Origin: Myxococcota bacterium
Lineage (GTDB): Bacteria; Myxococcota_A; SURF-8
NCBI GenBank assembly: GCA_963674735.2
Contig: CAXXQS010000002.1
Location: forward strand, 1,664,001 to 1,728,000
Direction of reading: 5' to 3'
Length of the DNA: 64,000 nt
Part shown: one piece after another, positions 17,770 to 57,901 of the stretch
Position numbering within the stretch: position 1 is the first letter of the stretch
How the letters are laid out: every line of letters starts with the position of its first letter
The notes under the pieces: generated by a model
Told to the model about the DNA's origin: nothing
What the model saw: only the letters and a program-made list of their open reading frames with translations
The model's database searches: none
Program-made: the position numbers and the translations under genes

Positions 17770-18741
17770 ATGCAAAGAAAACGTCAGTGGTTGTTGATTT
17801 TTTTATCGAGCCTGCTGATTTCCTGTGGCGGAGATGATGACGCAAGTGACAGCGGTGTCTTTAGCCGTGAAGGCGAGAGCTGTACGAAGACGGCGGACTG
17901 CGAAAGCGGTCTGCGCTGTGTGGATTTGGAGTGTGTGCAGGATAATGAAACTTCGGACGGCGACGAAACCGACGGGGATACGTCCGAGGGCGACTTTGCC
18001 GACGGCGACTCGACAGAGCGCGATCTCTCCTGGTTATCGATTCCGGGCGGAAGTTTTGAAATGGGCTGCTCGATAGACGACAATCGTTGCAATTCCAGCG
18101 AAAATCCGCGTCATCGCGTGACCGTCCCCGGCTTCAAGATGACGAAGTATGAGGTAACGAACGCGCAGTACGTGGAGTTTATAAACAACCGTGGGAGCAA
18201 TGAATGCTCGACTTTTCCCTGCATGAGCCTGCACCCTTATCGTTGGCATGAATCGGGCGGTTTGTGGAGGGTGATTCGTGGCCACGAGAACCATCCGGTT
18301 GTGCAAGTGACCTGGTATGGGGCGAAGGCGTTTTGCCAGGCGGCGGGCGGCCGCTTGCCCAGCGAAGCGGAATGGGAGTATGCGGCACGCGCCGGAACGA
18401 CGACGAGATACTATTGCGGCGATGAATCAATCTGCCTGCCTGATGTTGCGCGTTGGAATACGGGGAGCACCTGCCCGGTAGGCCAGTACGATCCAAACGA
18501 TTTCGGGTTGTACGACATGCTGGGCGGCGTGTGGGAGTGGGTGGAGGATTGCTGGCACGATGATTACGATGGTGCTCCCACGGACGGCACTGTTTGGGAC
18601 AGACAATTTTACACGACTCGTGTGTTGCGCGGCGGTTCCTACTGGTCCTATTCTTCCCGGAGCCTGGGCGCGTCGAGCCGCTCCAGGCTATTTCCCTACG
18701 AATTGGACACTGACATCGGCTTCCGCTGCGCCCGGGACTGA
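17770..18741 (+). CDS. Formylglycine-generating-enzyme (SUMF1/FGE-sulfatase) domain lipoprotein
   Basis: Lipobox LISC, short Cys module, DGD linker; F.MG, YEVTNAQY, HPVVQVTW..A.AFC, RLPSEAEWEYAARAG, GLYDMLG.VWEW, RGGS, IGFRC. Confidence 0.9.
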   Translation: MQRKRQWLLIFLSSLLISCGGDDDASDSGVFSREGESCTKTADCESGLRCVDLECVQDNETSDGDETDGDTSEGDFADGDSTERDLSWLSIPGGSFEMGCSIDDNRCNSSENPRHRVTVPGFKMTKYEVTNAQYVEFINNRGSNECSTFPCMSLHPYRWHESGGLWRVIRGHENHPVVQVTWYGAKAFCQAAGGRLPSEAEWEYAARAGTTTRYYCGDESICLPDVARWNTGSTCPVGQYDPNDFGLYDMLGGVWEWVEDCWHDDYDGAPTDGTVWDRQFYTTRVLRGGSYWSYSSRSLGASSRSRLFPYELDTDIGFRCARD

Positions 18742-20042: not shown

Positions 20043-20570
20043 TTAGTCGCCTTCGAACTCGACCAGATGGAAGGTCGAGATTCCGGCTTCCGAAAGTTTT
20101 TTGGTGCCTCCGATGTCGGGCAGATTGATCACGAAGCCCGCTTCAACCACTTCGGCTCCCATTTTACGACAGAGATTGGATACGGCCAGAGCCGTGCCGC
20201 CGGTGGCCAGCAGATCGTCGATCACCACCACTTTATCGCCGGAATCGAGTGCGTCGACGTGGATTTCGACGGCGTCCGTCCCATACTCCAGGGCGTATTC
20301 CTCACGCATCGTTTTCACCGGTAATTTTCCCGGTTTACGTGCGATTACGAGTCCTTTTCCGAGATCTTTGGCCAACACGGAACCGAAGATGAATCCGCGT
20401 GACTCGATGGCGACGAATTTGTCGAAGTCCAGGCCGCGATAATGCGTGAGAAGCGCGTCACACGTTTGTGCGAAACCTTCCGGATTGAGCATCAAGGTGC
20501 TGATATCGCGGAACATAATGCCCTCTTTCGGCCAATCGGGGACCGTGCGGATGTAGGACTTCAGAGTCAT
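20043..20570 (-). CDS. apt: Adenine phosphoribosyltransferase
   Basis: IRTVPDWPKEGIMFRDI, IESRGF, RKPGKLP, YALEYG and VIDDLLATGGT. Confidence 0.96.
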   Translation of the reverse strand: MTLKSYIRTVPDWPKEGIMFRDISTLMLNPEGFAQTCDALLTHYRGLDFDKFVAIESRGFIFGSVLAKDLGKGLVIARKPGKLPVKTMREEYALEYGTDAVEIHVDALDSGDKVVVIDDLLATGGTALAVSNLCRKMGAEVVEAGFVINLPDIGGTKKLSEAGISTFHLVEFEGD

Positions 20571-20633: not shown

Positions 20634-21200
20634 CTAAATGATCATTTTCTGCATCTTTTTAAAGGCTTCGGTGCCTGCACGCTCCAGGAGTTGAAAAAGG
20701 GCGGCTTCGGTGGTGGTCACCACCGCACCGGCACGCTCCATCAAGGCCAGACCGGCGGCCTGATTGTGGGGGAGACGCGTGGCGGTGGCATCGGCGACGA
20801 CGTGGACATCGTAGCCGAGCTTCAGAAGCCCGAGGGCGGTCTGATACACGCAGATGTGTGCTTCCATCCCCGTAAGCAGGATTTGTTTACGTCCCTTGCG
20901 GTCCAGCTGGCGAACCACTTCTTCTTCTTCCGTGGCGGCAAAATCGATTTTAGCAACGGTTAATGCGTCTGTAATCGACTGTTTTATATCGGGAATCGTG
21001 GGTCCGATCCCCTTCGGGTATTGCTCGGTGACGAGAATGGGGATTTTGAGTTCGTTTGCCGCGGCGGTCAGGATCGGGACATTTTTGAGTAAATTTGTCT
21101 GTCCTTCTTCCGTCATAACCTTAAAGAGACGCTCTTGAATATCCACCACCATCAGGTGGGTGCTTGCCGTGCCAAGAAACTGCGGGTGTTGATGATTCAT
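20634..21200 (-). CDS. Isochorismatase family hydrolase
   Basis: VVDIQERL, TEQYPKGIGPT and GMEAHICVYQTA. Confidence 0.9.
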   Translation of the reverse strand: MNHQHPQFLGTASTHLMVVDIQERLFKVMTEEGQTNLLKNVPILTAAANELKIPILVTEQYPKGIGPTIPDIKQSITDALTVAKIDFAATEEEEVVRQLDRKGRKQILLTGMEAHICVYQTALGLLKLGYDVHVVADATATRLPHNQAAGLALMERAGAVVTTTEAALFQLLERAGTEAFKKMQKMII

Positions 21201-21544
21201 TATTTTTCTCCAAGTCAAAGGATGAATTTAATTAGCATGTCCCGGCACTATCGTCAATGGAAACGAGATGGGTAACAACCCGGTACGGTGTTTCATTCAC
21301 GAATCCAGAAAAAATGAGCTAAACTTGTGATTGCAGCAACCGTTATTAAAAGGGAAGACCTGTTTTACTGCTACGGCTTAAGGTTTGAGGTGGTCCCATC
21401 CACAGCAGCCGGCCATGTGGGGAATGCATGAACGATAGCCATCGCACAACGCAATCGATCGGAAGTGATGACAAACTTTGGGCGGTTGTGGCACATTTAC
21501 GGCGATCTTTATGTTTTTCTCATCGCAATCGCCACTGAAAGGCA

Positions 21545-21574
21545 TTGACACAAGGTGGGGAGGCTGGGTAGGAT
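21545..21574 (+). promoter_or_regulatory. Putative sigma70 promoter of the PqqD / giant-protein unit
   Basis: TTGACA-18 nt-TAGGAT upstream of ATG 21618. Confidence 0.4.
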
Positions 21575-21617
21575 TAAGTCTCACGCAGGGAGAAAGGGAA
21601 GGGAAACGGAAACAAGC

Positions 21618-21893
21618 ATGACTTATCCGTTCAGAAATCCGCGTGCGGCGACACGAACCATTGAAGGCGAGGCGGTTGCCGTTTCGCCGGACGATGCGAT
21701 GCTGCACAATTTCAACGAAGTGGGAACCCTGATTTGGGAACTGGCGGATGGTCGACACGACCTCGACGCCATTGCCGATCGCGTTTCGGCTACCTATGAC
21801 GTCGGCTTGGCCGAAGCCCGGCGCGATGTGGAAGCGTTTTGCAGCCAGTTGGCCGATCGCAAGATTCTCGTTTGGCGAGATAAGCCTCGATAA
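21618..21893 (+). CDS. PqqD family protein (RiPP recognition element)
   Basis: 91 aa: R.IEGEAV.V......H.FNEVGTLIWELADG......IADRVS..YDV....ARRDVEAF...L....IL, the classic PqqD/RRE pattern. Confidence 0.9.
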   Translation: MTYPFRNPRAATRTIEGEAVAVSPDDAMLHNFNEVGTLIWELADGRHDLDAIADRVSATYDVGLAEARRDVEAFCSQLADRKILVWRDKPR

Positions 21894-21972
21894 ATTATTA
21901 AGGAAACGTCGATAACCGACAAATGAAATTGGGAATACTTTAAGTAAACTTTTCAGTACCGAAAAGAAGGAG

Positions 21973-24900
21973 ATGGTCATGAAACGGATTCCGGAGATCC
22001 TGATGGTGTTGATCGCCACTACGCTATTGGCGGGGTTGGCGGTTGGATGCTCCAGCTCCAGTTCCATCGGCGGCGATTACGACCTGAGCAGCGAAACCGA
22101 CCTCGATGGCGATATGGAAGACACGGAAGAGCCGGAAGGCGACACCGACGGAGATGCGGACGAAGACGGTGATGTCGAAGAGGAGACGGCCATCCCGACG
22201 GTTTCCTTCGATGACGGAGATTCTTGGTCGGTGACGTATGCCGATGATGCCAATGGCAGTCTCGACGGTGTACAGATTTCGGTCGGAATCAGCACCGAAA
22301 ACATCGATGCCGGGGTTGCGGTCAGCTTGACCGTCGGGGATTCGACCGAGCCCTTGTCCGGCACGCTTGGAGACGATGGCAAAGCGACATTTGCCGATGT
22401 AACGCTGGAGCCGGGCACGAACAACCTGGGGGTTACGGTGGACTTGGAAGGCGATGACGACCTGACCGCCGCTGCCGCCGTTACCTTGACCGGTTGCCGG
22501 ATCATCTTTGTCGATCCCATCGAGGCCCAGAGCCTGACGGATGCGGGGGGAACCTGCTCAGCCGACGATTGCGGCGATGATCTCGATTGCAACATGCCGA
22601 ACCTGCAATACAACGTGTCGTTGACCGTCGAAAACGTCGGTGTCGGCCGCGCGGCGGCTCTGACCGTCGGGGATGTCGATCCGTTGACGGCCAATGTGGC
22701 GGCCGACGGTTTGACCTTCAGCATGGTGAGCCTGCCGCACAACGCCTCGCTTCCGCTTAGCGTCGAAGTAACCAATGCTGCGGGCTTCACCTGCGAGGCG
22801 GAGATCAATGTGGCGGTGGATATCCAGTGCGATTGCCATCTTGTCATTGATCCGATTCCCGAAGATTACAATCTGGCGGTTACCGACGATGACGACCAGA
22901 CCGACGGTTTCCAGAAGCGCTTCACCGCGACTTCCGATAACTGTCTGGACGGCTCGCAGGTCAGCTTCACTGTGGATGCCGGAACGCGCGCCGATCCGGT
23001 CGTGGTAACATTGGAAAACCAGCAAGCTGTTGCCTTACTGACCTTGCCCGATGGCTCGCATACGCTTGAAATGGGGATCACCGAGCCCGATACCGCGCGT
23101 ACCGGCGCGGCCGGTCCTTACAGCTTCCGCGTCGATCGGGAGGCTCCGCTGTTCGATTCGGTCAACCCGACCGATGGTATGACGCTTTCCAAGCTCAACG
23201 ACAGCGACCTGGATCTCAGCAACGGCATTCAAATTGCCGTTTCGGGTGTTACGACGGGCGTTGAAGCCTTGGATCCGGCCTTGACCGTCGCTTTGACCAT
23301 CGACGATGTGGATTGGCCGGAAACGGCGGATGTGGCCAACAACCAGTTCAATTTCGCTTCGGTTACCCTGTCGCGTCCCGATGGCGCGGCCGATCCGGTC
23401 GCTATGGTTCTTGAGTTGACCGTCCAAGACGAATTGGGGAATCCCACAACGGAGACGATCAACCTCAACGTGTATTTCGATGAACCGGAGTTGACCCTCA
23501 CTGAAGTCGGCACCAAACCGGTTGCCGATCCGCTGATTCTCAACATCGGTGACGATGAGGACGGCGTTGCAAACCTGCTGCAGGTTACCGTTACCGCCAG
23601 CAGCAACCTGATTCCCGAGAACTCCAATGCTCGGCTGTTTGTCGATTCGGGTGCGCCGGTTGATGGGACGATCGGGTCCGATGGCTCCGTCACCTGGGAA
23701 ATAGCCTTGGATAACGGTGCGCATACCCTGAGTGCCGATGCGGAACTATCGGGTGTCGCCGGAGCCGTTGAGGCCGAAGATGTGGATCTCTGGGCAGACT
23801 GGGAAGCTCCGATGATTCAGTTTGTCTCACCACAGAATAACGATTACGTCGATACCAATGTGATGGATGTTACCGTTTATTCGGATGCGGAGAACGCGTC
23901 CGATGGCGATAAAGGTCAGAAAGTGACCTTGCTGGTCAACGGCAGTGCGCTGGCGTCCGGTCCGGTGGCCCTTGATGCCGATGGATTGGCGCTTTTCGAA
24001 GACGTGGATGTTTCGATGTCGCGACTTTCGACTTTCCAACTGGAGGCGGAGATTTCGGATTACGCCGGAAACGATGCCGATACGCAACTTAGCTTGAATG
24101 TCGACAATCAGGCTCCGACCGTTGCCGTGACGGCTACCCCGGATGTTGGCAATCCCGCTCAAGTCGAAATCCTGATCACGGTTAGCGATGATGCGCCGAC
24201 GGAAGGACGCGATGTGACGCTGACGTTGTTTAACGTCAACAGTGCGCCTGTCCAGCAGGATCAACGAACCCTCAGCCTGGCTTCCGGAGAAGCGACCTAT
24301 ACCTACAATAGTCTTCCCGACAGCAGCTACAGCGTAACGGCTCGCTATGAAGATCAGGCCGGGAACGACGATAGCAGCAGTGACGATTTCGAGGTTGATA
24401 CCGGTTGTTATACCATGTCGATCACGGCGCCGACCAATGGCGTTTTCTATGGGATTGCCGATGCCGTCGGTGGGAACCCGGCCAATGGTGTTGACATTTC
24501 CGTTGTTGTCGAGGCCGGTGGCGTTCGACCCATCCCGGATGCCAGCGCGGTTTTCCTGCAAGTCGACGGCGCTTTGCCGGGCATAAGCGGAACGATGGCT
24601 TCAGGTGTGGCGACGTTTGCGAACGTCAACCTCGATGCCGGATCGCATACTTTGGAAGTGTACACTCTCAAACAGCCGGGACCGGTGTTCTGCTATGCGT
24701 CGCCGCGACCGGTTAATGTGACCGTCGATTTCACGGCCCCGACGCTCAGCCTGACGAGCCCCGCGCCTCCAGTCCCCGCGACGGACCCGCTGGTGTACAA
24801 TCTGGCCAGCACCGATGTTTCTCCCGATGCGGGTTTCCAGGCCGCTTTCACGTATCGCAGTCTGGATGCCGGTGAAGGTCAGGATGTCACGTTGGTGGTG

Positions 24901-27900
24901 AGCGACGGTTCGCGTGCGCAACAGTCGTACACGGCGGCGCTCAATGCTTCGGGCGATGCCCTTTTCAATTCCGTCACCCTTTCCGGCAGCACTTTTGCAC
25001 AAGGAACGCTGCTGACTCTGACGGCGACCGTGGAAGACGAATCCGGCAACACATCGGATCCGGTGGCTTATTTTGCCATCGTCGACCGCCTGGCGCCGAC
25101 TTTCAGCAATATCATGCCGACAGCGGGATCCACCTTGAATTCCGGTGATGACAACGATCCGGTTGCGGAAAACTTCCAGCTGCTGATGACTCTCACCATC
25201 GCCGATGGAACGCCGGGTTCCGGTAATGTGAGCGTCGAGGTGGTTCCGTCCGCCGATCCGGGCAACCCTTATGATCTTGGGCCCTTCAATCTGCAGGCGA
25301 ATGGCTCGGTGACGATTACCGGGTCTTTCACCGAAGGCAGCTACACCTTGAACATCGCCCATACCGATGAAGCCGGAAACAGCGGCGATACCAGCGTATT
25401 CTATCAGATCGACTTCGTGGCCGAACTGACGCTGCTTGACAAGAATTTCGATCCCATTCCTCCCGATGGCGGTGGAGATACGGTTCTCGACAGCTCGTTC
25501 GATACCAGCGGCGATGCCGGTTTCCAGACCAACTTCTATGCGAATACGCGTGGTTTCCAACAAGGTCTGCCGGTTTATCTGTGCTCGACCCTCGCGTCGG
25601 AAGGGACCAATGGAGTCTGTACCTCCGCTCCTGGCGGGGTTACGGCTTATCGCGTAGCCAGCGCGCTGGTTACCGCCGGCTCCGGCGATGCCGGGTCGGC
25701 CACGTTCAGCGATATCGATCTTGACGATCAGGCCACCCGCCTACTGTTTGTCGAAGGTACCGATGGGGCCAACAACTACAGCTCGTCCGAACCGGCAACG
25801 GTTATCGTCGATGCGACCGCTCCGACCGTGGATGCCTTTGTTATTACGGACAATCTGGTCGGCAACGATTTTCCGCCCAACATCGTTCTGAACCGCAATG
25901 AAGGTGACATCGTAACGGGTCTGTTGGTTGTCGATATGAGAGTGGATAGTGCCGACAGCGACGCTGAAACGGTACGTGTTTATGTCGGGGCCGTGGATGG
26001 TACCATCGAAGCCAGCGCGAGTCTCTCTGCCGGTTCGGCGGTTTTACGTTTGCCGGATGTCTCCGGTTTGCCGAACGGATATACGGATGAGCTGAATGCG
26101 GTGGTCGTCGATGAAAACGGCAATGAGTCCGATCCGTTCACATTGCCGGTTATCGTGGATCTGCGGAGTCCCTCGATTGCCTTTGTCGGAAGCGGTCTCT
26201 TGAGCGTCAATGCCGATGATTGCTCGGGCTTCAGCGGCGACGCTTGCGAGACGTCGGTTTCCGTTACGGTCACACGCGCCGCCAATGATCTTTTCGATCT
26301 GGACGGCGGAGTTGTCACGATTACCGATTCGGCCAGCCGGGCGGTGGTCGGTACGGCGGTTATTCCCAGCATCGCCGCCGGAGCTTCGGCCGAAATTCCG
26401 GTTGATGTGACGCTGGACGAAGGATCCTACACGCTCTATGCCAGCGCTGCCGATCCTTATGGCAATTTGTCCGAGACCGTCAACCGGAGTGTCAGCGTCG
26501 ATGTGTTTGCTCCGACGGTGGCGTTTGTAACGCCGTCGAGCGCATCGATTACGTATGATGGCGGCACGGATGATCAGGCTACCTGCGGCGGCAGCACCAC
26601 CGATCAGTACTTCACCCGCTGCGACTGGCAGGTTTCAGCCAGTGGCGTGACGAGTAATACGACCTTACAGCTTTATTACAAGGTTTCCACGGACCCGGGC
26701 GACTTCAACCCCTTCGACCTGCCCAGTCAGGGTTCGACCAGCGTGAGTGCGGACGGCAACTGGTCGATCAGTCGCGCGGATTTCCAACTGGACGGCAGTG
26801 AAACTTTCCTGGTTAAAGTGCAGGCCACCGAAGTTGCGACCGGTAACGTCGGGTGGTCGGACGAGGTGTCGGTTACCATCAATGGTTTCAGTCCGACCTG
26901 GACGATCGCGTTCAAACGTCTGGATGATTCAACGTTTGCCAGCGGCGCAATCTTTGATGAGAACGATGAAAAGGATGGCGATTTGACCAATGCCTCCGTA
27001 ACCATCGATTTCAAGGTTTCCACCAACATTCCGGATGGCGAAACGATGAGCCTGTCCGTTAACGGCAACGGCCCCGCCAGCCAAAGCATCGCCAGCGGAA
27101 TCGCGACGTTTAGCGATGTGGTTCTCAATGAAGGTGCGCAGAACACCTTGAGCGTCGAGGTGGTTGGTTATACCAGTTCATCGGTAACGGTTATCGCCGA
27201 TACCAAAAATCCGGAGCTGGTTTTCACCTCTCCCGTATTTAAAGCGACGTACAACGTGGCGGACGATACGGATACCGGTGATCGTACCGGCGTGTTGCTG
27301 GGATCCAGCGTCGTGGTCAAAACCACGGATATCATGCCCCAGTCGGGACAACCGGGTTACACGGTTCGTCTGGTGGCCGACGATGGAACGAAGGCTGTGA
27401 CCACCTTGGCCACGGCGAATTGGACGACCGATACCGGTGTCTACAAATACAAAGCGACCTTCACCAATGTCAGCCTGCCGAACGGGGCTATTTCGCTGGA
27501 TGTCAAAGCCGACGATACCGGGGCGGCTCCGGTGGATCGCGCCGAACACCAGGGGGCCGTGCAGACGCCTCTGCCGTCGATGACGGTCGATGCCGATCCT
27601 CCGGCGGATGCTACCAGCCTGGAAGTCTGTCTGGGCTCGGATACGGGCACGACGGGCAGTTTCGATCAGGATGGTGTCAACTGTACGTCGGCTTATGCCT
27701 GTAACAGTCTGAGCAGCCGCTGTGACCGCCATGCCGGCACGGCCGCCCTTGTGTGGACGGCACCCTCCGGTGATGGAACGACCGGTAGCGTGACGCCGAG
27801 CAGTTATGAAATCCATTACGTCAAGAAAACCGGCACGGTCGACCCGTGTTCGGGTGTTACCTGGGCGACGGCCAACAGCCCATCCGCCGGTGTAACCGTT

Positions 27901-29475
27901 ACCGTGGATGCGCTCGTTGCGCCAAGTAGCAAACAAGGGGCGGTGGTTACGGGGCTGTCGGTCAATACCGATACCAGCTATTGCTTCCTGGTCAAGGCCA
28001 AGGATGCGGCCGGGAACAGCTCGATCAATGCGGTTTCTGTGGCCCGTGAAGTGGCGTTCATCAAAGAAACGCTGGTGTCGGGTGTGGGCGGAAGCGAATT
28101 GGTCTATCCGGGGTATTACGTCGAATTCGGCGATTTCAACGGAGATGGTTGCGCTGATGTCGCCGTCGCCGATCCTTATTGGGGCACGCAGAGCACCTGC
28201 GCTGAAGTTGACAAGAGCGACTGCACACAGGAGGGTGGAAAAGTCAGCGTGATTTATGGCGATGACGGCGATGCCTGTACGCCTGAAAGCGATTGGGAAA
28301 CCAACGGTTTCTACCAGTCTGCGAACTCGTTTGGCGACAACCTTGGCTGGAGCCTGGGGGTGGGCGATCTGAACGGCGATTGCATCGATGACTTGGCTGT
28401 GAGCGCCTCCCGTTACAATTCCGATGATGGCGGCGTGTTTGTTTACCTCGGTAGTTCCTCGGGTCTCAAAACCACCGCCGGTGATGTGGCGGGTGGTGAG
28501 CCGAGCATCGAACCCGATGTCACGATCGGGTCGGATGCGGGGGGATATCAGGGTCTTGGCAACCATATCGAGGTCATGAACTGGAACGGCGATACGGTGA
28601 ATTGCGGCGGAACCGATAGGCCGGTGCACGACCTGTTTGTTTCGACTTACTTCTATTCGGACTATGCCACCATCTTCTTCCCGGTTTATGCGTTCCTGGG
28701 CGGCTCCGGCTTTACCAGCGGTGCGAACTTCAATGTCACCAGTGGCGACGAAGATTTCAGTGTTCAGGGATTGTACGACGATCCGACCACTACTTATTCG
28801 TGGTACTTCGGCTTCTTCCTGTCTCATGGCGATTTAGATGGTGACGGCTATGAAGATCTACTGATCAGCGATACCGATTACCAGTGGTCGGGCGGTACTC
28901 GCGATCATTTCTGGGTGGTTTGGGGCAACTCCACCGTATCGAGTTCGATCCAAGCGCCTGCCGCGGGCTTCCTCGAACTTCCGCCTGATACCGCCGATCA
29001 GGTCGAGGATTATGGATTCTATGTCGGAGGTGTGCTCGATACCGACAATGACGGTCTTGACGAGGCTCTGGTGCGCAAACTCGCCACCAATTCCGTGCAC
29101 TATTGGAAAAGCACGACAGGCAGCGAGCGTGATGTTGCCGATACAACGCGCTTCTTCCAGTATGAGACATCGCCGGGTAGCACGGATACCTACTATGGCA
29201 TCGAACCGGCCACGGCGGGCGATTTCAACCATAGCGGCTTCAACGATGTCATTTTGTCCGGCACCGGTATCGTGCGTGTCTTCTGGGGCCGCACCGGTGG
29301 CATCAAGAATGACAGCGAAGCGCCGGGCGCACCGGAAGACGACTTCATCAACATCAACGGTCTGTCGACGGTCAACACCTTGCAGGCTAAGGGTAACGGC
29401 GATTTCGACAATGATGGTTCCGCCGATATCGTCGTGGTGGATCAGTCGACCGGTGACGTTTACCTGATTCACTAA
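21973..29475 (+). CDS. Giant (about 2500 aa) surface lipoprotein: tandem Ig-like repeats, FN3-like domain, C-terminal FG-GAP/integrin-like beta-propeller
   Basis: Lipobox LAVGC; D/T/S/G/V-rich repeats ending D.AGN and VD..AP; WTAP.GDG...Y.F.VKAKDAAGN; GDFNGDG, GDLNGD, GDLDGDG and GDFDNDG motifs. The true start may be ATG 21979, given RBS spacing. Confidence 0.85.
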   Translation: MVMKRIPEILMVLIATTLLAGLAVGCSSSSSIGGDYDLSSETDLDGDMEDTEEPEGDTDGDADEDGDVEEETAIPTVSFDDGDSWSVTYADDANGSLDGVQISVGISTENIDAGVAVSLTVGDSTEPLSGTLGDDGKATFADVTLEPGTNNLGVTVDLEGDDDLTAAAAVTLTGCRIIFVDPIEAQSLTDAGGTCSADDCGDDLDCNMPNLQYNVSLTVENVGVGRAAALTVGDVDPLTANVAADGLTFSMVSLPHNASLPLSVEVTNAAGFTCEAEINVAVDIQCDCHLVIDPIPEDYNLAVTDDDDQTDGFQKRFTATSDNCLDGSQVSFTVDAGTRADPVVVTLENQQAVALLTLPDGSHTLEMGITEPDTARTGAAGPYSFRVDREAPLFDSVNPTDGMTLSKLNDSDLDLSNGIQIAVSGVTTGVEALDPALTVALTIDDVDWPETADVANNQFNFASVTLSRPDGAADPVAMVLELTVQDELGNPTTETINLNVYFDEPELTLTEVGTKPVADPLILNIGDDEDGVANLLQVTVTASSNLIPENSNARLFVDSGAPVDGTIGSDGSVTWEIALDNGAHTLSADAELSGVAGAVEAEDVDLWADWEAPMIQFVSPQNNDYVDTNVMDVTVYSDAENASDGDKGQKVTLLVNGSALASGPVALDADGLALFEDVDVSMSRLSTFQLEAEISDYAGNDADTQLSLNVDNQAPTVAVTATPDVGNPAQVEILITVSDDAPTEGRDVTLTLFNVNSAPVQQDQRTLSLASGEATYTYNSLPDSSYSVTARYEDQAGNDDSSSDDFEVDTGCYTMSITAPTNGVFYGIADAVGGNPANGVDISVVVEAGGVRPIPDASAVFLQVDGALPGISGTMASGVATFANVNLDAGSHTLEVYTLKQPGPVFCYASPRPVNVTVDFTAPTLSLTSPAPPVPATDPLVYNLASTDVSPDAGFQAAFTYRSLDAGEGQDVTLVVSDGSRAQQSYTAALNASGDALFNSVTLSGSTFAQGTLLTLTATVEDESGNTSDPVAYFAIVDRLAPTFSNIMPTAGSTLNSGDDNDPVAENFQLLMTLTIADGTPGSGNVSVEVVPSADPGNPYDLGPFNLQANGSVTITGSFTEGSYTLNIAHTDEAGNSGDTSVFYQIDFVAELTLLDKNFDPIPPDGGGDTVLDSSFDTSGDAGFQTNFYANTRGFQQGLPVYLCSTLASEGTNGVCTSAPGGVTAYRVASALVTAGSGDAGSATFSDIDLDDQATRLLFVEGTDGANNYSSSEPATVIVDATAPTVDAFVITDNLVGNDFPPNIVLNRNEGDIVTGLLVVDMRVDSADSDAETVRVYVGAVDGTIEASASLSAGSAVLRLPDVSGLPNGYTDELNAVVVDENGNESDPFTLPVIVDLRSPSIAFVGSGLLSVNADDCSGFSGDACETSVSVTVTRAANDLFDLDGGVVTITDSASRAVVGTAVIPSIAAGASAEIPVDVTLDEGSYTLYASAADPYGNLSETVNRSVSVDVFAPTVAFVTPSSASITYDGGTDDQATCGGSTTDQYFTRCDWQVSASGVTSNTTLQLYYKVSTDPGDFNPFDLPSQGSTSVSADGNWSISRADFQLDGSETFLVKVQATEVATGNVGWSDEVSVTINGFSPTWTIAFKRLDDSTFASGAIFDENDEKDGDLTNASVTIDFKVSTNIPDGETMSLSVNGNGPASQSIASGIATFSDVVLNEGAQNTLSVEVVGYTSSSVTVIADTKNPELVFTSPVFKATYNVADDTDTGDRTGVLLGSSVVVKTTDIMPQSGQPGYTVRLVADDGTKAVTTLATANWTTDTGVYKYKATFTNVSLPNGAISLDVKADDTGAAPVDRAEHQGAVQTPLPSMTVDADPPADATSLEVCLGSDTGTTGSFDQDGVNCTSAYACNSLSSRCDRHAGTAALVWTAPSGDGTTGSVTPSSYEIHYVKKTGTVDPCSGVTWATANSPSAGVTVTVDALVAPSSKQGAVVTGLSVNTDTSYCFLVKAKDAAGNSSINAVSVAREVAFIKETLVSGVGGSELVYPGYYVEFGDFNGDGCADVAVADPYWGTQSTCAEVDKSDCTQEGGKVSVIYGDDGDACTPESDWETNGFYQSANSFGDNLGWSLGVGDLNGDCIDDLAVSASRYNSDDGGVFVYLGSSSGLKTTAGDVAGGEPSIEPDVTIGSDAGGYQGLGNHIEVMNWNGDTVNCGGTDRPVHDLFVSTYFYSDYATIFFPVYAFLGGSGFTSGANFNVTSGDEDFSVQGLYDDPTTTYSWYFGFFLSHGDLDGDGYEDLLISDTDYQWSGGTRDHFWVVWGNSTVSSSIQAPAAGFLELPPDTADQVEDYGFYVGGVLDTDNDGLDEALVRKLATNSVHYWKSTTGSERDVADTTRFFQYETSPGSTDTYYGIEPATAGDFNHSGFNDVILSGTGIVRVFWGRTGGIKNDSEAPGAPEDDFININGLSTVNTLQAKGNGDFDNDGSADIVVVDQSTGDVYLIH

Positions 29476-29494
29476 TCCGGGTTGATTATGACGG

Positions 29495-29528
29495 CCCGGG
29501 GCTGGCTCTGGCCTGGCCCCGGGTCTTT
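29495..29528 (+). terminator. Probable terminator after the giant gene
   Basis: CCCGGGGC...GCCCCGGG stem followed by TCTTT. Confidence 0.55.
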
Positions 29529-29564
29529 AGTTAATTCGGTTAGTTGGAAATCTCTTTGAATCGC

Positions 29565-29593
29565 TTGACAGTCTGGTGACACCTATTGATAAT
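29565..29593 (+). promoter_or_regulatory. Sigma70-type promoter of the small peptide gene
   Basis: TTGACA-17 nt-GATAAT, about 50 nt upstream of ATG 29644. Confidence 0.65.
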
Positions 29594-29643
29594 TGCGAGA
29601 TCGGAAGACCCAAAACTTCGCATTCTTTGAACGAGAGGACAGC

Positions 29644-29802
29644 ATGAGCGACAGAACGAAGACTACGGAACAAGAAGTCCGGAGCAGCAAGAAGCCATAT
29701 AAAAAACCCGAAGTCGAAAGCGCCAAGATTTACGAGCGTTTATCGCTGGCCTGCGGTAAAGCTACGCAGCCTCCCTGCCGCACTCCGCTTAAGTCGGCTT
29801 AA
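29644..29802 (+). CDS. Putative RiPP precursor peptide (52 aa)
   Basis: RBS GAGAGGA; MSDRTKTTEQEVRSSKKPYKKPEVESAKIYERLSLACGKATQPPCRTPLKSA carries a KKPYxKPxV RRE-binding-type motif and a two-Cys C-terminal region. Confidence 0.75.
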   Translation: MSDRTKTTEQEVRSSKKPYKKPEVESAKIYERLSLACGKATQPPCRTPLKSA

Positions 29803-29824
29803 TTCAAGGTCTACAGGTTAGCTG

Positions 29825-30679
29825 TTGCCTCACACATCGGAAGGCTTTTGTATTGCGGGCGTTTTCTTTTCGCTGGATGCTGCGCCTGAGGTATATAAAG
29901 CTTGCGTCATTCCTCGATATCTTTCGGCATTCATCTCCGATGGCATGAGTCGTCACGACTTGGTGCATGCGCGGATCGAAGCGCTTGACAAGCCGGAAGA
30001 ATTCGTGAGCGATTCAACCGTACCGGATGTTCGGATTCTGCCTCATCATCAAGGCTATCGTATTGAAGTTCCAGGGGGTATTTTCGCTAATGTCGATGAG
30101 GAAAACCGATCGATCGTGATGATGATTCCGCGCGCATTGCTTGAAGGCGATTGTTTCACGGCCTGGATCCCATTTTCTTCCCTGCTCCGTATCTTCTTTT
30201 CGATCGAATTACCCAAGCGGAACAGCGGACTTCTCATGCATGCTTCCTCGATTGAAACAACCCAAGGGGCACAACTGTTTCTCGGGCCTTCGGGGGCGGG
30301 AAAATCCACGGTTTGCGATCTGGGGGGTGAACGAAATATTTTGAATGACGAAGTATCGATTTTACGCCGGATTTCAGGCTCTTGGGTCGTGGAACCTTCT
30401 CCGTTCTTTTCCCGCGAAACACGGGAAAATCGCGCGATTCGGCCCGGTCCTGTGGCCGGGATTCATCTGCTAACTCAATCGGAATTCGATTCTCTTGAAT
30501 CTCTATCCATTCCGCAGGCGCTAGCTCCCTTCATGCGCTGCATCATGAATTTTTTGGATGGCCCCGAGGTGGCGGAAAGACTTCTGGAGCTTTCCACGGA
30601 CTGTCTGATGGCCCATCCGGCCACCCGCCTGTATTTCACTCCAACCCCGGCATTTTGGTCGCACATCGAAGCGGATTGA
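29825..30679 (+). CDS. HPr kinase-related P-loop protein (ScmC / lasso-kinase-like)
   Basis: LLMHASSI, LFLGPSGAGKST, ILNDEVSILR, SPF and LYFTPTPAFW; the TTG start is uncertain. Confidence 0.75.
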   Translation: MPHTSEGFCIAGVFFSLDAAPEVYKACVIPRYLSAFISDGMSRHDLVHARIEALDKPEEFVSDSTVPDVRILPHHQGYRIEVPGGIFANVDEENRSIVMMIPRALLEGDCFTAWIPFSSLLRIFFSIELPKRNSGLLMHASSIETTQGAQLFLGPSGAGKSTVCDLGGERNILNDEVSILRRISGSWVVEPSPFFSRETRENRAIRPGPVAGIHLLTQSEFDSLESLSIPQALAPFMRCIMNFLDGPEVAERLLELSTDCLMAHPATRLYFTPTPAFWSHIEAD

Positions 30680-30687
30680 TTTCGCGG

Positions 30688-32052
30688 CTATTTCTCCTTG
30701 TGAGGGAAGGCTTGCGGACTGTTGAAATACGCCTTGGTTTCCTTGGCAACCAGGCCTGAGAGGAATAGCAGCCCGATCAGGTTCGGGAAGGCCATCAACC
30801 CGTTGAAAATATCTGAAACGGTCCACACGACCGGCAAAGCCAGTGTCGCACCGAGCGGGATGGCCAGGGTGTAGAGCGTTCGATAGACAATCACGGATTT
30901 TGCTCCAAAGATGAACTCAGTCGAACGATCTCCATAATAACTCCATGAAATTATGGTCGAAAAAGCAAAGAAAACGAGTCCAAAGCTGACGATGTAGCGG
31001 CCGATTCCCGGCAGCGCTTGCTGAAAAGCGCTGGCGGACAGGACAGCTCCCGTCAGTTGTTTGCCCGTTTCGGGGTCTGTGTGCGTCCACAAGCCACTAA
31101 TCAAGATGACCAGGGCTGTCATAGAGCAAATCACGATCGTGTCGATAAATGGCCCCAACATGGCGACCAATCCCTCACGCGGGGGATACTTGGTTTTGGC
31201 GGCGGCATGGGCGATGGGAGCCGATCCCAAACCGGCTTCATTGGAAAAAAGACCGCGAGCCACACCGAATCGCATGGTCTCCATCACCGTGGCGCCCAAA
31301 AAGCCTCCGGCGGCGGAAGTCGGGGTGAAGGCGTGCTTGACGATCAGGGCGAATGTGGCCGGAATCAGGTCGAAATGCATCACCAGAATCGTCAGGGATC
31401 CCAGAACGTAGATGATGGACATAAACGGCACGATACGAGACGCCACATTGGCGATGCGTCGGATGCCGCCAAGAATGACCAATCCCACCAATATCCCTAA
31501 AACAATGCCGGTTATCCATTTGGGGATTCCCAATTCCGCCAGTGGTTCGGCGACGGAATTGGCTTGCACCATGTTGCCGATACCGAAGGAGGCGATGACG
31601 GCGAACAGCGCGAATAGCCAACCCAGCCATTTTTGTCCAAGCCCCTCGGCCAGGTAATACATCGGGCCGCCGGAAACCGAGCCGTCGGGATTGATGCGCC
31701 GGTATTTGCTGCTCAGGGTGCACGAAGTGAATTTGGTGGCCATACCCACAAACGCCGTCACCCACATCCAGAAAATCGCTCCCGGACCGCCCGCCGCGAT
31801 CGCAGTGGCGACTCCGGCGATGTTGCCGGTCCCGATGGTGGCCGATAGCGCAGTTGCTAACGCCTGAAAATGACTGATGTCGCCTTCGTCCTCGGGATCG
31901 TCGAATTTCCCGGAAATCAATGTCCAGGCATAGCGAAAGCGTAATAGTTGGATGAGTTTCAGTCGTAGGGTAAGAAAGATTCCCGTGCCCACCAATAAAA
32001 CGATGGTGACAGGACCCCAGACGAATGAACTGATCGTGTTCAGCAGTTCCAA
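30688..32052 (-). CDS. Sodium:alanine/glycine symporter (AGCS family)
   Basis: ALSATIGTGNIAGVATAI..GGPGAIFWMW, GVARGLFSNEAGLGSAPIAHA and FIDTIVIC. Confidence 0.95.
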   Translation of the reverse strand: MELLNTISSFVWGPVTIVLLVGTGIFLTLRLKLIQLLRFRYAWTLISGKFDDPEDEGDISHFQALATALSATIGTGNIAGVATAIAAGGPGAIFWMWVTAFVGMATKFTSCTLSSKYRRINPDGSVSGGPMYYLAEGLGQKWLGWLFALFAVIASFGIGNMVQANSVAEPLAELGIPKWITGIVLGILVGLVILGGIRRIANVASRIVPFMSIIYVLGSLTILVMHFDLIPATFALIVKHAFTPTSAAGGFLGATVMETMRFGVARGLFSNEAGLGSAPIAHAAAKTKYPPREGLVAMLGPFIDTIVICSMTALVILISGLWTHTDPETGKQLTGAVLSASAFQQALPGIGRYIVSFGLVFFAFSTIISWSYYGDRSTEFIFGAKSVIVYRTLYTLAIPLGATLALPVVWTVSDIFNGLMAFPNLIGLLFLSGLVAKETKAYFNSPQAFPHKEK

Positions 32053-32256: not shown

Positions 32257-32955
32257 ATGTCCACCGACAAAAAAAAGACCGACCGCATGGCGGATATGGA
32301 AAAAGTGAACCCGCAACTGTGGGAGCGAGTTCTTCAACCCGATCAGTTGATTCGTATTCGTTTCCCAAAGGAAGACGGCGGGTTCGCTCTGGACAGCAAG
32401 GTTCTGGCTCTCGATCGGAACACGGTTTACAGCGCCGGATTGGAAGATTTGACTGTTAATCCTGGAGCGTTGGCGCAGATTTCCTTTTTTACCGAAAAGG
32501 CCATATACAGCTTCGTTACGCGATTAATCGAACGTCGACCGGTGGATGAGCCCCTGATTGGTCCCTTGCTTGCCTTTGAAAAACCCGTGGCCTGGAAACG
32601 CATTCAGCGAAGATCGGATTTCCGATTGGAATGGCATTTTCCCGTGAATGTTCGGTTCCTGTCGCACCCCGATGATTTGTTTAAAGCTCGAAACGTGAAC
32701 ATCAGTGCATCGGGGATGCTGCTGGCGATGGAACGCTACCCGTCTATCGGTGATAAACTGAGCCTTGATTTCAACCTTCCCGGCGAGGATGATCCTTTTC
32801 ATGCCGAAGCCGAGGTGATTCGGCAGGCCGTGCGTCAGGAAGGTGATCGGGAGCTTTTTCAGTTCGCTATCCGCCTCACTTTGTTAAACGACCGAGACCG
32901 AGACCGTCTAGCCCAGATCCTGTGGAAAAAAACCCGTGAAAGGATCATGAAATGA
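32257..32955 (+). CDS. YcgR-like flagellar brake (PilZN + PilZ)
   Basis: IQRRSDFR and NISASG motifs after an N-terminal beta domain; lies upstream of the flagellar cluster. Confidence 0.8.
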   Translation: MSTDKKKTDRMADMEKVNPQLWERVLQPDQLIRIRFPKEDGGFALDSKVLALDRNTVYSAGLEDLTVNPGALAQISFFTEKAIYSFVTRLIERRPVDEPLIGPLLAFEKPVAWKRIQRRSDFRLEWHFPVNVRFLSHPDDLFKARNVNISASGMLLAMERYPSIGDKLSLDFNLPGEDDPFHAEAEVIRQAVRQEGDRELFQFAIRLTLLNDRDRDRLAQILWKKTRERIMK

Positions 32956-35522
32956 TCGCAAGGCTGTTGGATTTACGTCACCTTGTGATTGGATCCGGTT
33001 TTGTTTTTTGGATGATCTTTTCGAGCATCAATCCGCTTGAAGCGGCTTCGTCCGATCGATCCCTGGTTTTGGTGGTTGACCGTTCCCAAATTGGTTTGCA
33101 ACATGATGTCAGCCAGCATGTTTTGCCTGCTGCGGAATTGGCCATCGGTGTTTCTCCGACTTCCATGAACTGTGGTGTCGTTGCAGTGGGAGAGAAAGCG
33201 GAAGTGGCGGCTCGGCTTCGATCGCCTTGGACGTCAAAACGGTTAAGGGAAAAATTCGCCGTACTTCGACGTCAAGCGCATTTGGGTCAGGAATTGGATC
33301 TGGATGTCGGTTTGCTCGAGGCTCTTCGCTTGATCAAAAAGAAACGTGGTTCAAAAGGGGTGATCCTCGCGGTTGTAACCAACCCAGCTCCATTGGATCC
33401 TATTGAAAAAACGATAAAGTTATTAAAAAAATCTGAGGTTCGACTTCATGTTGTCGCGTTGAAAGCGGCGGCTCCTCCGATTGAATGGGAGAAGGCGGCG
33501 CAGGCGACGGGGGGGATTTTAAAGGTTTGCGATGTTGTAACGGATCTCGAGAGATGTTTGTTGGATGCGTTTATGGTTGCGGCAGGACCTCAACAGCTTC
33601 CTCTGAATGACTCGTCATTTCAGATCGACCCCTACTCGCGCATTATCCGGATTGTCGCCCGTTCCACGGGATCGGTGAAACCGGTATTGCTTGGACCTGG
33701 CGGGATTCGTATTGACGCCGCAAAGCCCGCGATGTATGGCCGCAAAGGAATTTTTGTTCAAGAATTTCATTTCCACTCCATGTTTCAGTTGAAGAATCCG
33801 AAGCCGGGCAATTGGAAAATAGAGCACGTCGATTTGAAAGGCGTGAACGCTTTTATTGAATCCCAGCAGCGGGTTGAAGTTCTGGTGCCCCGCCGCCGAT
33901 TTGTTGAGACCGAACTGTTACCCGTTGCTGCGTATCTTGCGCGCAAAGGAGTGGTTGTCAAATTACCGGGTTCTGAACAAATGGAAGGTTTCGTCGTTAA
34001 ATTGGTGAATGATGATGGCGATGCCATTGCCAGTTCGACCATGCTGGATGACGGTAGTTTTCCCGATGCGCGTAAAGGTGACGGCGTTTATTCCGTTGTC
34101 TTACCGCTGAATCACCACACCGGGATGCAAACCATCCAAGTCGAGGCGCGAACCCAGGCTCTGGCCAGACGGCGTTTGGAGCGTATCGAGGTTATGCCTG
34201 GAAACTGGGTTGAAAAACTTGAGCCTGCGGACGAGATTGAGATGGGGCGGACGCCGCTTACAACGGTGATGCTCTCTCAAGCTCTCCCGCTGGATAGCAG
34301 TACGGTTGTTATGGCGCGTTTGGGAAGCAGCAAGGAATACCTTCTCAAGCAAGCTCGTGGAAATCCCTACCAATGGGGAGGGTTACTGCCGACTCCAACG
34401 ACTCCGGGGCACCTGACGTTGCATATTTTCAAACGCAATTCATCGGTTCCCTGGCTGAGAGATGAACAATCGGTGCTGTATCCTATTCGTGTCAAGGAAG
34501 CGCTGAACGAAGAGGTCGCAACTTCACCGATGGTTGTTTTGTTCGTTCTTCTCGTGGTCCTCAACTCCGGTGCCATGTTGTATATGCTGGTTCGCTATTT
34601 GCGTCGGCCTAAGCCGGTTTTGGTTCAGGAAACGGGAGAGTTTGAGCCCGAGGACCGGTTTGTCGAGCATGAAGTGGAAGAATCGATTCCGGACTCACCC
34701 GAGCCGGTCAAAATGAGAGTGGAAGCACGAATCATCACACCGGAAGCGGAAAAGCACGAGGGAGTTGTCTCCAACGTCGGCGAGCGACTCGGGGAGGTAT
34801 TGGGTTCTCATATAGAGGCTTCAGAGCAAGATGATATTGTTGTTCCGGATTTTTCCGCGGATGAACTCGATCGGGATTCTGATTCGGAATGGGTGACGGG
34901 GGATGCCTTGGATCGCGTCCAAACCTGGTTTAACAAGGATGATAAACCGGAGGATAGCGATTCCCGGGAAACAGGTTCCGAAGATGAACAACCCGATTCT
35001 GAAGAGGCAACTGATGAGTCCGACTTGTCGGCGGAAGAGGTAGAAGAAGAAATACCGGGTGAAGAAGGAAAACCGGATGCGGCTGAAAGCGAATCTGGTG
35101 ATCCGGTGGAATCGGTTGACGAAGATGACCTGGGATCGGAAGAACCTGAAACCGTGGAAATACCGGCTGAGGCGAGCAAGGGGGAAATGAACGCCGATCA
35201 GGCCATGAATGCGACGGCCTCACTCCTTGATTCCTTGATCTCGTCCAGTTCGGACGAAGAGACGGGATTGTCTGAGATGGCGACGGCGCTCGGTTTGGTT
35301 GACAACGCGGAGTCCGGTGACGAAGATCAGGTCATATCTGGCGATGACGACCCGGATGCACAAGTGGAGCCGGCCGCGCGGATCGTTACGGATGACGATG
35401 AGTTGGGGGGCTTGTTGGATGAGGATCTGCGGGCGATGTTATCCCAACAGGAAAAAGTCGGGGCTTTGGCGGATACCCTTCCTGATGCGGATGCTTCGGA
35501 AGAAGAGCCGGACTCTCCATGA
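32952..35522 (+). CDS. Membrane protein: degenerate vWA-like and beta-sandwich exterior part, one TM, long acidic cytoplasmic tail
   Basis: LVLVVDRS (degenerate MIDAS), LDDGSFPDARKGDGVYS, TM VVLFVLLVVLNSGAMLYMLV, then about 300 aa rich in D/E. Confidence 0.6.
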   Translation: MIARLLDLRHLVIGSGFVFWMIFSSINPLEAASSDRSLVLVVDRSQIGLQHDVSQHVLPAAELAIGVSPTSMNCGVVAVGEKAEVAARLRSPWTSKRLREKFAVLRRQAHLGQELDLDVGLLEALRLIKKKRGSKGVILAVVTNPAPLDPIEKTIKLLKKSEVRLHVVALKAAAPPIEWEKAAQATGGILKVCDVVTDLERCLLDAFMVAAGPQQLPLNDSSFQIDPYSRIIRIVARSTGSVKPVLLGPGGIRIDAAKPAMYGRKGIFVQEFHFHSMFQLKNPKPGNWKIEHVDLKGVNAFIESQQRVEVLVPRRRFVETELLPVAAYLARKGVVVKLPGSEQMEGFVVKLVNDDGDAIASSTMLDDGSFPDARKGDGVYSVVLPLNHHTGMQTIQVEARTQALARRRLERIEVMPGNWVEKLEPADEIEMGRTPLTTVMLSQALPLDSSTVVMARLGSSKEYLLKQARGNPYQWGGLLPTPTTPGHLTLHIFKRNSSVPWLRDEQSVLYPIRVKEALNEEVATSPMVVLFVLLVVLNSGAMLYMLVRYLRRPKPVLVQETGEFEPEDRFVEHEVEESIPDSPEPVKMRVEARIITPEAEKHEGVVSNVGERLGEVLGSHIEASEQDDIVVPDFSADELDRDSDSEWVTGDALDRVQTWFNKDDKPEDSDSRETGSEDEQPDSEEATDESDLSAEEVEEEIPGEEGKPDAAESESGDPVESVDEDDLGSEEPETVEIPAEASKGEMNADQAMNATASLLDSLISSSSDEETGLSEMATALGLVDNAESGDEDQVISGDDDPDAQVEPAARIVTDDDELGGLLDEDLRAMLSQQEKVGALADTLPDADASEEEPDSP

Positions 35523-56035: not shown

Positions 56036-56039
56036 AAGC

Positions 56040-56813: not shown

Positions 56814-56841
56814 TGTCGTTACGGCATGAGGCAGGTGAGCC

Positions 56842-57114: not shown

Positions 57115-57116
57115 TC

Positions 57117-57890: not shown

Positions 57891-57901
57891 AGGCATAGAG
57901 G

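Follow-up and report, generated by a model that had tools for sequence, protein, structure and literature searches.

A 64,000-nucleotide stretch of contig CAXXQS010000002.1 (the window; positions 1,664,001 to 1,728,000 of assembly GCA_963674735.2) from a Myxococcota bacterium carries, at window positions 21618-30679, four co-oriented genes on the plus strand, encoding a stand-alone PqqD-type RRE (recognition element for peptides that are made on the ribosome and modified after translation, RiPPs), a giant probable lipoprotein, a 52-residue peptide and a P-loop protein of the ScmC family (Table 1). They lie between opposite-strand housekeeping genes (apt and an isochorismatase-family gene on one side, an AgcS-type symporter gene on the other), and no lasso cyclase, B2 peptidase, nucleotidyltransferase, radical S-adenosylmethionine (SAM) gene or exporter adjoins them; a first-pass annotation, made from the sequence alone, had reported both the arrangement and these absences, and the neighbouring genes bear it out. 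We regard the locus as probably contributing the larger share of a RiPP-type system that belongs to the ScmC/PqqD/radical SAM-SPASM cassette family and is split in this genome; it has the form typical of the phylum, the precursor being encoded directly behind the gene of a giant FG-GAP lipoprotein. The PqqD domain, the P-loop protein and the peptide each occur once in the genome, and the one PqqD domain returned by the genome search is that of the window RRE.

The precursor peptide (MSDRTKTTEQEVRSSKKPYKKPEVESAKIYERLSLACGKATQPPCRTPLKSA) has a lysine-rich N-terminus, a leader with the motif Y19-x-x-P22-x-V24 followed by I-Y-E-R, a core with Cys37 and Cys45, and a C-terminal Ser51-Ala52; a purine-rich GAGAGGA stands 4 nt ahead of its ATG. 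With tblastn, a peptide open reading frame (ORF) is seen immediately upstream of the gene for the ScmC-like protein, both in five relatives from the window's order (G001-G004 and G008; G000 denotes the window genome) and in more distant genomes. From K-P-Y up to the first Cys, a stretch of 21 codons, five relatives of the order differ from the window copy at 5/3/13, 3/1/11, 5/4/9, 4/4/7 and 7/4/16 first/second/third codon positions; to judge from this comparison, the peptide is under coding selection, with changes concentrated at third positions. That the ORF is conserved, a point on which the first-pass annotation had made its proposal depend, is borne out by these relatives of the same order and by the third-position bias of their substitutions.

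An alignment of 16 peptides shows no variation at Y19, P22 and C37 and hardly any at C45, and all sequences end in Ser or in Ser-Ala/Gly. A profile search of a word-indexed protein collection returned 86 proteins, all unnamed and none with a Pfam domain; Ser is the last residue in all 86, the leader motif is followed by exactly two Cys in 84, and the motif Tyr is present in 85. An exhaustive search covering 1.84 billion representatives matched the peptide profile to 1163 representative clusters at E ≤ 1e-3; of these a further 142 were listed, with a terminal Ser in 129, Ser-x at the end of 5, and two Cys in 124. These counts lean towards the Ser/Cys/Tyr pattern, since the search profile itself has those features. 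Residue S34, at the place that matches the core Ser of the LPP system discussed below, is unconserved, with Ala in the relatives, and no Asp or Glu acceptor is present after residue 31, in the post-leader stretch LSLACGKATQPPCRTPLKSA, nor in most of the peptide family. The window peptide itself is missing among the matches in both protein collections, where orthologues from G001, G002, G004 and G008 are present, and it has therefore apparently been passed over in gene calling.

For the RRE, a profile built from the window protein and 17 cassette relatives was matched to solved structures. TbiB1 ranked first (5v1u, 1.4e-19), followed by LppB (9x8z, 7.2e-15), PbaB1 (9x90, 4.1e-12) and TfuB1 (6jx3, 1.6e-10), with true PqqD proteins behind these lasso and LPP RREs at about 1e-7. 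Against the NCBIfam model of the ScmD PqqD-like protein (TIGR04248) the window RRE scores 32.4 bits and does not reach the cut-off of 100. In the alignment D70 is the sole invariant column, N33 is conserved in at least 90% of the rows and F74 is conserved as well, and a HMMER alignment places N33, D70 and F74 of the window RRE on the leader-contact residues of LppB, where Asp70 is reported to form a hydrogen bond with the leader Tyr, Asn33 to fix the kink at the leader Pro and Phe74 to pack on that Pro (PMC13381572). This residue-level correspondence suggests that the window RRE would bind the YxxPxV leader.

The P-loop protein was assigned by way of a precomputed match: PF27840.1 covers its own cluster and 17 of 18 other homologues, the atlas name of PF27840 is ScmC, and the nearest clusters score 0.97. 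Our library copy of Pfam returned a sub-threshold match to AAA_29 only; the NCBIfam ScmC model (TIGR04249) is matched at E 3e-7 with 30.1 bits, short of its cut-off of 125, and HprK_rel_A (HprK-related kinase A) with 17 bits, its cut-off being 200. Across 18 aligned homologues, G135, H139, G154-x-S-G-A-G-K160-x-T162, D175 and P193 are invariant, with the His, the P-loop Lys and the Asp presumably at HprK-like spacing. The AlphaFold model (mean predicted local distance difference test score, pLDDT, 90.8; predicted TM-score, pTM, 0.88) was compared with solved structures in Foldseek, in which ATP-dependent phosphoenolpyruvate carboxykinases (PEPCK; E 2.5e-7, TM-score about 0.5) came ahead of HPr kinase/phosphorylase (HprK/P) chains 1ko7, 1knx, 1jb1 and 1kkl (E 4e-5 to 5e-4). 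All fall into the same fold class at about 10-13% identity, and the window protein is closer to PEPCK than to HprK/P by TM-score. The label "HPr-kinase-related", given to it in the first-pass annotation, can be kept for fold and motifs, on account of the PEPCK/HprK matches and the invariant residues; it does not hold as a family name, which is ScmC, as Pfam gives no HprK family match, and an HPr substrate context is likewise absent. We treat the protein as a putative precursor-peptide kinase.

The giant protein starts with a signal peptide, whose end ...LAGLAVGC we take to be a lipobox, and continues through acidic linkers and Ig-like repeats (Big_13, Big_3) to a C-terminal FG-GAP, integrin-alpha-like beta-propeller. 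Its solved-structure matches are integrin alpha-V propellers only, and neither an enzyme domain nor a C25 domain was found in it, even at E ≤ 1 or against solved structures; a role in binding, anchoring or display at the surface is therefore the simplest reading. Orthologues of 2592-2877 aa occupy the equivalent position in G001, G003 and G004, in which the order PqqD, giant, peptide, ScmC is retained together with the apt and isochorismatase flanks, and the loci of G002 and G008 are without a giant gene.

Promoter-like sites ahead of the RRE gene and of the peptide gene, together with a terminator-like hairpin behind the giant gene (Table 1), suggest two transcription units, one of RRE and giant gene and one of peptide and ScmC gene. 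The region holds 4 promoter-like sites against a shuffle mean of 4.5, and 13 terminator-like sites against 10.8, which is no enrichment; as the counts do not exceed those of the shuffles, the sites serve as pointers only.

Table 1. Features of the locus, its flanks and the distant radical SAM region (window positions, unless a genome and contig are named).
Feature	Position	Strand	Remarks
apt	20043-20570	-	upstream flank
Isochorismatase-family gene	20634-21218	-	upstream flank
Promoter-like site TTGACA-18 nt-TAGGAT	21545-21574	+	ahead of RRE gene; 10/12 consensus matches
Stand-alone PqqD-type RRE, 91 aa	21618-21893	+	Pfam PqqD E 2e-16, 60.5 bits, cut-off 23.4
Giant probable lipoprotein, 2500 aa	21973-29475	+	FG-GAP E 1.6e-13, Big_13 E 4.9e-13
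Hairpin, terminator-like, 13 pairs (10 G-C), weak T-run	29493-29525	+	after giant gene
Promoter-like site TTGACA-17 nt-GATAAT	29565-29593	+	before peptide gene; 11/12 consensus matches, best in region
Precursor peptide, 52 aa	29644-29802	+	ORF, profile, conservation
ScmC-family P-loop protein, 284 aa, TTG start	29825-30679	+	PF27840 precomputed; PEPCK/HPr-kinase-like fold
AgcS-type symporter	30688-32052	-	downstream flank
PRMT-like methyltransferase (PRMT_C, PrmA domains) and radical SAM/SPASM pair (L065/L072)	G000:C2:830968-833295		outside window
Cassette-clade radical SAM/SPASM gene	G000:C2:831964-833295		about 0.85 Mb before locus, after PRMT-like methyltransferase

To survey the phylum, 401 genomes from 254 genera were searched with the peptide profile, which was found in 64 genomes and 50 genera; about 15 kb were taken around 57 further matches, and all 64 loci annotated with hidden Markov models from our own alignments. 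ScmC is present in 59 of these loci, PqqD in 46 and a cassette-type radical SAM/SPASM enzyme in 53. The commonest gene order is scmc>pqqd>rsam>PEP (PEP being the peptide gene; 11 loci), with pqqd>fggap>PEP>scmc>rsam in 10 and fggap>PEP>scmc>rsam in 8, several of the latter ended by contig edges; some orders are slightly scrambled because stop-to-stop frames overlap. A large FG-GAP gene ends just upstream of the peptide, on the same strand, in 39 of the 64 loci, and in view of this frequency the giant gene is taken to be a recurrent member of the system in the phylum. The first-pass annotation had suggested looking at gene neighbourhoods for recurring giant Ig/FG-GAP proteins, and within the phylum they do recur. 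L048, ordered scmc>pqqd>rsam>fggap>PEP, again has its peptide right behind the large gene, whose product (1377 aa) contains FG-GAP and Big_13 by Pfam.

A radical SAM gene is absent from 11 of the 64 loci: three (L166, L168, L187) end within 1 kb past the peptide, six are those of G000-G004 and G008, and two are L135 and L163. Since the remainder are either cut short or belong to the L135/L163 pair, the window's order is one of two lineages without an adjacent radical SAM gene. L135 and L163, from one genus (G355 and G280), contain peptide and ScmC only; genes for PqqD, a radical SAM enzyme or an FG-GAP protein are lacking within about 6-9 kb.

Beyond the phylum, a pattern scan for relatives of the P-loop protein yielded 36 loci from Acidobacteriota, Bdellovibrionota, Chloroflexota, Desulfobacterota, Gammaproteobacteria and others, whose 317 crudely called neighbour ORFs were compared with Pfam, with tblastn employed for the RRE. 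As read from the resulting table, 23 loci have PqqD and 17 a radical SAM enzyme (14 of these with SPASM); a Peptidase_C25 protein occurs in 9, a PF14907 nucleotidyltransferase in 8, Wzy_C in 4 and an S24/S26-like peptidase in 3. The Peptidase_C25 family is matched in none of 14 control genomes, and the PorU sortase model, whose cut-off is 420, gives 218 bits for one cassette C25 protein. Small ORFs with YxxP, two Cys and a terminal Ser adjoin the kinase-like gene in many of these loci, in which no cassette member reached an NCBIfam equivalog cut-off. Two Bacteriovoracaceae loci (L031 1-9122 and L053 1-9102, both on the minus strand) have the cassette back to back with a gene whose product exceeds 3030 aa and in which fn3, Ig and LamG domains are followed by a C25 domain cut by the locus end, in parallel to the giant FG-GAP protein. 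Fusions to PqqD were seen for an ScmC-like domain in an Acidobacteriota metagenome-assembled genome (MAG; L052 365-1534, plus strand) and for a QueC-like domain in a gammaproteobacterial MAG (L034 10590-11843, minus strand).

The window genome contains five SPASM-domain genes. One of them, the distant radical SAM gene of Table 1, is preceded by a gene for a methyltransferase resembling protein arginine methyltransferases (PRMT) and has orthologues in G004 (47%), G003, G002, G005 and G008; its best matches in G012, G013, G019, G024, G029 and G038 are ScmC-adjacent radical SAM genes. A 29-row IQ-TREE quick tree groups the enzyme and its orthologues with the cassette enzyme L025 (Shimodaira-Hasegawa-like approximate likelihood-ratio test, SH-aLRT, 98), and a 75-row FastTree makes it the sister of eight cassette enzymes of giant-linked loci (SH-like support 91). 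The distant methyltransferase is 33% identical (E 8e-46) to one encoded directly downstream of ScmC in G008, and methyltransferase and radical SAM genes neighbour each other in G004 too. As the orthologues measure only about 360 aa, the distant enzyme probably needs a separate RRE, and the genome has one PqqD domain; against ScmE it scores 95 bits, short of the cut-off of 400. No second precursor gene was found beside the distant methyltransferase/radical SAM pair in six loci. The first-pass annotation had left a choice between a minimal peptide-modification system and the local part of a split cluster. The links of phylogeny, best match and methyltransferase between the distant enzyme and the cassette support a split cluster, so that the second option fits best and the minimal system is less likely. 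All three methyltransferase-bearing genomes of the order (G000, G004 and G008) have an Arg at or near the second Cys, a weak correlation that makes Arg46 a possible target of the PRMT-like enzyme.

A second radical SAM/SPASM gene, inside the window (61069-62217, minus strand, 382 aa), was considered as the missing enzyme and set aside, since neither tree places it within the cassette group. Among the NCBIfam models the mycofactocin maturase matches it best (130 bits, cut-off 265), and two ORFs without a family match adjoin it (62227-63261, 344 aa, and 63261-63971, 236 aa, both on the minus strand).

The locus had been held to fit no class. This does not stand: the P-loop protein is a member of Pfam ScmC, and the locus a trimmed ScmC/PqqD/radical SAM-SPASM cassette of SynChlorMet-like type. 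Cassettes of this type are already defined in curated databases by sequence comparison. SynChlorMet (NCBIfam TIGR04248-TIGR04251, Pfam PF27840) shares with the window system an ScmC-family protein, a PqqD-like chaperone and radical SAM/SPASM enzymes that travel together. It has two radical SAM enzymes, whereas the window system has one, outside the locus, and ScmE/ScmF are not adjacent; judged by its model names, the curated definition has neither a Ser-terminated two-Cys precursor nor a giant surface protein. Literature searches, with most subscription journals outside their coverage, found no paper on SynChlorMet or the ScmC/radical SAM cassette; none was found on the peptide-motif strings of the family, again with most subscription journals outside coverage, and nothing relevant on radical SAM enzymes with Peptidase C25 and PqqD. 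The present analysis adds the phylum-wide counts, the residue match of the RRE and the evidence for a split cluster.

The closest experimentally tested systems are phosphorylated lasso peptides and the linear polyphosphorylated peptides (LPP) of Bacillota. The LPP system (precursor LppA, RRE LppB, HprK-like kinase LppK, SpI-like peptidase LppS, LppN and LppD; Popov et al., 2026, PMC13381572) comprises an RRE, an HprK-like kinase and an SpI-like peptidase (SpI, signal peptidase I) on a leader of the form YxxPxVLxHQxIxFETxxS. It shares with the window a discrete lasso-B1-type RRE with the same Asn33/Asp70/Phe74 contacts, and the leader of the window family, YxxPxVxSxxI(Y/F)E(R/T), is visibly related, relatives reading FET as in the LPP logo. 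An HprK/PEPCK-fold P-loop enzyme, the lack of a cyclase and a link to cell-envelope genes are likewise common to both, the likeness of the kinases being one of fold and motifs. LPP is phosphorylated on core Ser3 (PMC13381572), whereas the conserved Ser of the window family is C-terminal; the two conserved core Cys and the usual radical SAM/SPASM enzyme mark the window family, and a giant FG-GAP lipoprotein is part of the locus. The same paper calls LPP restricted to Bacillota, which is not the phylum of the window. An SpI-like peptidase is not in the locus, the best match in the genome being to TIGR02228 with 40 bits against a cut-off of 51.85 (C2:261738), and neither a nucleoside triphosphate (NTP) transferase nor an MsbA-like exporter is adjacent; a PF14907 gene lies about 0.4 Mb away, and the exporter was sought at the locus only. 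By gene content the locus is not an LPP cluster, because it is without SpI peptidase, NTP transferase and exporter, its conserved Ser is placed elsewhere and it belongs to another phylum.

Phosphorylated lasso peptides (paeninodin, pseudomycoidin; PadeK, ThcoK, SyanK, PsmK, PsmN) share an HprK-like kinase, a conserved C-terminal Ser, a YxxP leader and a separate B1 RRE with the window family, in which Y19 and P22 are invariant in the 16 aligned peptides and TbiB1 is the best RRE match. According to a review, HprK-type lasso kinases phosphorylate or polyphosphorylate the hydroxyl of the C-terminal Ser on the leader-bearing precursor, this Ser is extremely conserved, and the kinases require a His-Lys-Asp-Asp motif (PMC9266682). 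PF14907 nucleotidyltransferases, known from such lasso clusters, also occur in many of the homologous cassettes. In place of cyclase, B2 peptidase and Asp/Glu acceptor, the window family has radical SAM chemistry and a Cys pair. Its radical SAM enzymes, where they are part of the cassette, match those of sactipeptide and ranthipeptide systems (AlbA, StsB, PapB-type) at E 1e-14 to 1e-27, and substrates with conserved Cys are common to both; all scores are far under the cut-offs, however, and a kinase-like partner and a terminal Ser are foreign to those classes.

In the system as we picture it, the 52-aa precursor would be made from its own promoter, strong by its consensus sites, and its Y19-x-x-P22-x-V24 leader bound by the stand-alone RRE, as residue-level homology to LppB and the lasso B1 complexes suggests. 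The ScmC-family enzyme, with its PEPCK/HprK fold, would then use ATP to phosphorylate the C-terminal Ser51, which is followed by one Ala; this step is proposed by analogy with PadeK, ThcoK, PsmK and LppK, and because nearly all members of the family have a terminal Ser. The distant radical SAM/SPASM enzyme would act in trans with the sole PqqD domain, a step that we infer from phylogeny and gene-neighbourhood links, and would most likely cross-link the core via the two conserved Cys. The product would act on the cell surface alongside the giant lipoprotein with its Ig repeats and beta-propeller, in keeping with the conserved adjacency of the two genes. The RiPP-type nature of the system, as first proposed, finds support in the conserved peptide ORF and in the leader-binding residues kept by the RRE.

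Several observations weigh against this proposal. The NCBIfam cut-offs for ScmC, ScmD, ScmE and ScmF are all missed by wide margins, a Glu stands here at the fourth position of the lasso-kinase His-Lys-Asp-Asp motif, and the window peptide ends in Ser-Ala, a penultimate Ser being found in only 5 of the 142 listed representatives. Given the hairpin between them, the giant and peptide genes are possibly not co-transcribed. As to the enzyme acting in trans, the search at E ≤ 1e-30 gave no radical SAM orthologue for G001, which has the cassette, the reverse holds for G005 (79% complete), with the orthologue present and ScmC unmatched, and the methyltransferase was found in only G004 and G008 among the relatives of the order; a paralogous L064-type clade, from genomes without ScmC, sits in the same broad tree group, and both radical SAM trees were made by fast methods.

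In a rival reading, the pathway of this lineage would have been reduced to its kinase, the radical SAM chemistry having been lost; the product would be a linear LPP-like phosphopeptide with its Cys pair as a disulfide, and the distant pair of enzymes would serve another substrate. The radical SAM gene is indeed missing from the locus in six genomes of the window's order and in L135 and L163, G001 is without an orthologue at E ≤ 1e-30, and LPP shows RRE and HprK-like kinase to be a working core (PMC13381572). Yet the distant radical SAM enzyme falls inside the cassette radiation in the trees, the methyltransferase ties it to ScmC in G008, the two Cys are still conserved, and orthologues of about 360 aa would probably depend on the one PqqD domain of the genome, all of which leads us to consider a kinase-only pathway rather unlikely. 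A decaying remnant, in which a key enzyme is lost and the other genes drift towards loss with no current function, would explain why the locus lacks the radical SAM gene that closes the commonest architecture, why the peptide end is atypical and why the ORF itself is not among the database matches, seemingly never having been called. Decay is hard to reconcile with four genes intact across four genera of the family, third-position bias in the peptide, intact catalytic and leader-binding residues and a near-consensus promoter ahead of the peptide gene, and we give it very little weight. Still less credible, to the point of being practically dismissed, is a lasso cluster whose cyclase and peptidase lie elsewhere: the YxxP-type leader, an RRE most similar to lasso B1 proteins, the tailoring of lasso peptides by HprK-like kinases (PMC9266682) and two Asn-synthase-family genes about 230 kb away speak for it, whereas the best genome match to the B2-type family Transglut_core3 stays at 24.9 bits, under the cut-off of 26, and comes from a distant 645-aa frame, and the post-leader stretch, as in most of the family, offers no Asp or Glu for a macrolactam. 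As no cyclase gene is near the locus either, its identity as a lasso cluster was rejected.

The place of the giant lipoprotein within the split ScmC/PqqD/radical SAM system was weighed separately. It may be a passenger, standing by chance between RRE and peptide: a terminator-like hairpin and a separate promoter stand between its gene and that of the peptide, none of its domains points to peptide chemistry, and 25 of the 64 phylum loci, like those of G002 and G008, are without such a gene. Against chance, a large FG-GAP gene directly precedes the peptide in the other 39 loci, which show at least three different orders of genes, among them scmc>pqqd>rsam>fggap>PEP, and large PorU-like C25 proteins are neighbours in 9 of the 36 loci from other phyla, with none of the 14 control genomes matching that family; we hold the passenger explanation to be improbable. 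A more specific idea, which we put forward only as a tentative one and consider rather unlikely, is that the matured peptide, Ser-terminated and constrained by its Cys, is a dedicated partner of the giant surface protein rather than a secreted antibiotic, either as a tightly bound ligand or plug of the integrin-like beta-propeller or as a moiety passed via its phosphorylated C-terminal Ser to a surface acceptor. PorU-like C25 proteins could do the analogous job in other phyla.

Elsewhere in the window, a 323-aa probable lipoprotein (17770-18741, plus strand) combines a full FGE-sulfatase domain, of the kind found in formylglycine-generating enzymes (E 4e-61), with a Cys-rich, Asp/Gly-rich linker. 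Downstream of the locus, at 32257-35522 on the plus strand, a PilZ-domain protein overlaps the start of an 856-aa protein without a family match, which has one membrane segment and a long, strongly acidic C-terminal tail and is followed by a TPR protein. A run of FliO, FliP, FliR-type (Bac_export_1) and FlhB-type (Bac_export_2) genes at 54701-59008 (plus strand) corresponds to a flagellar or type III secretion export gate.

Experimental tests of RiPP pathways in which an RRE is paired with an HprK-like kinase have to date been confined to the lasso and LPP systems of Bacillota, and one phosphorylated lasso cluster has been reported from Bradymonas. The window locus belongs to a much larger family, of at least 1163 representative peptide clusters, which follows regular rules: a YxxP leader, two Cys and a terminal Ser. 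With its genes divided across the genome, such a system would be missed or misjudged by mining tools that rely on clusters, and peptide, RRE, ScmC-like enzyme, methyltransferase and radical SAM enzyme make up a small, defined set for co-expression. The ties to giant integrin-like lipoproteins in one phylum and to PorU-like C25 proteins in others point to a role of the family in the cell envelope and not in chemical warfare. If the matured peptide is indeed a partner of the giant protein, this would be a family of ribosomal peptides that serve as built-in parts of bacterial adhesins or envelope structures.

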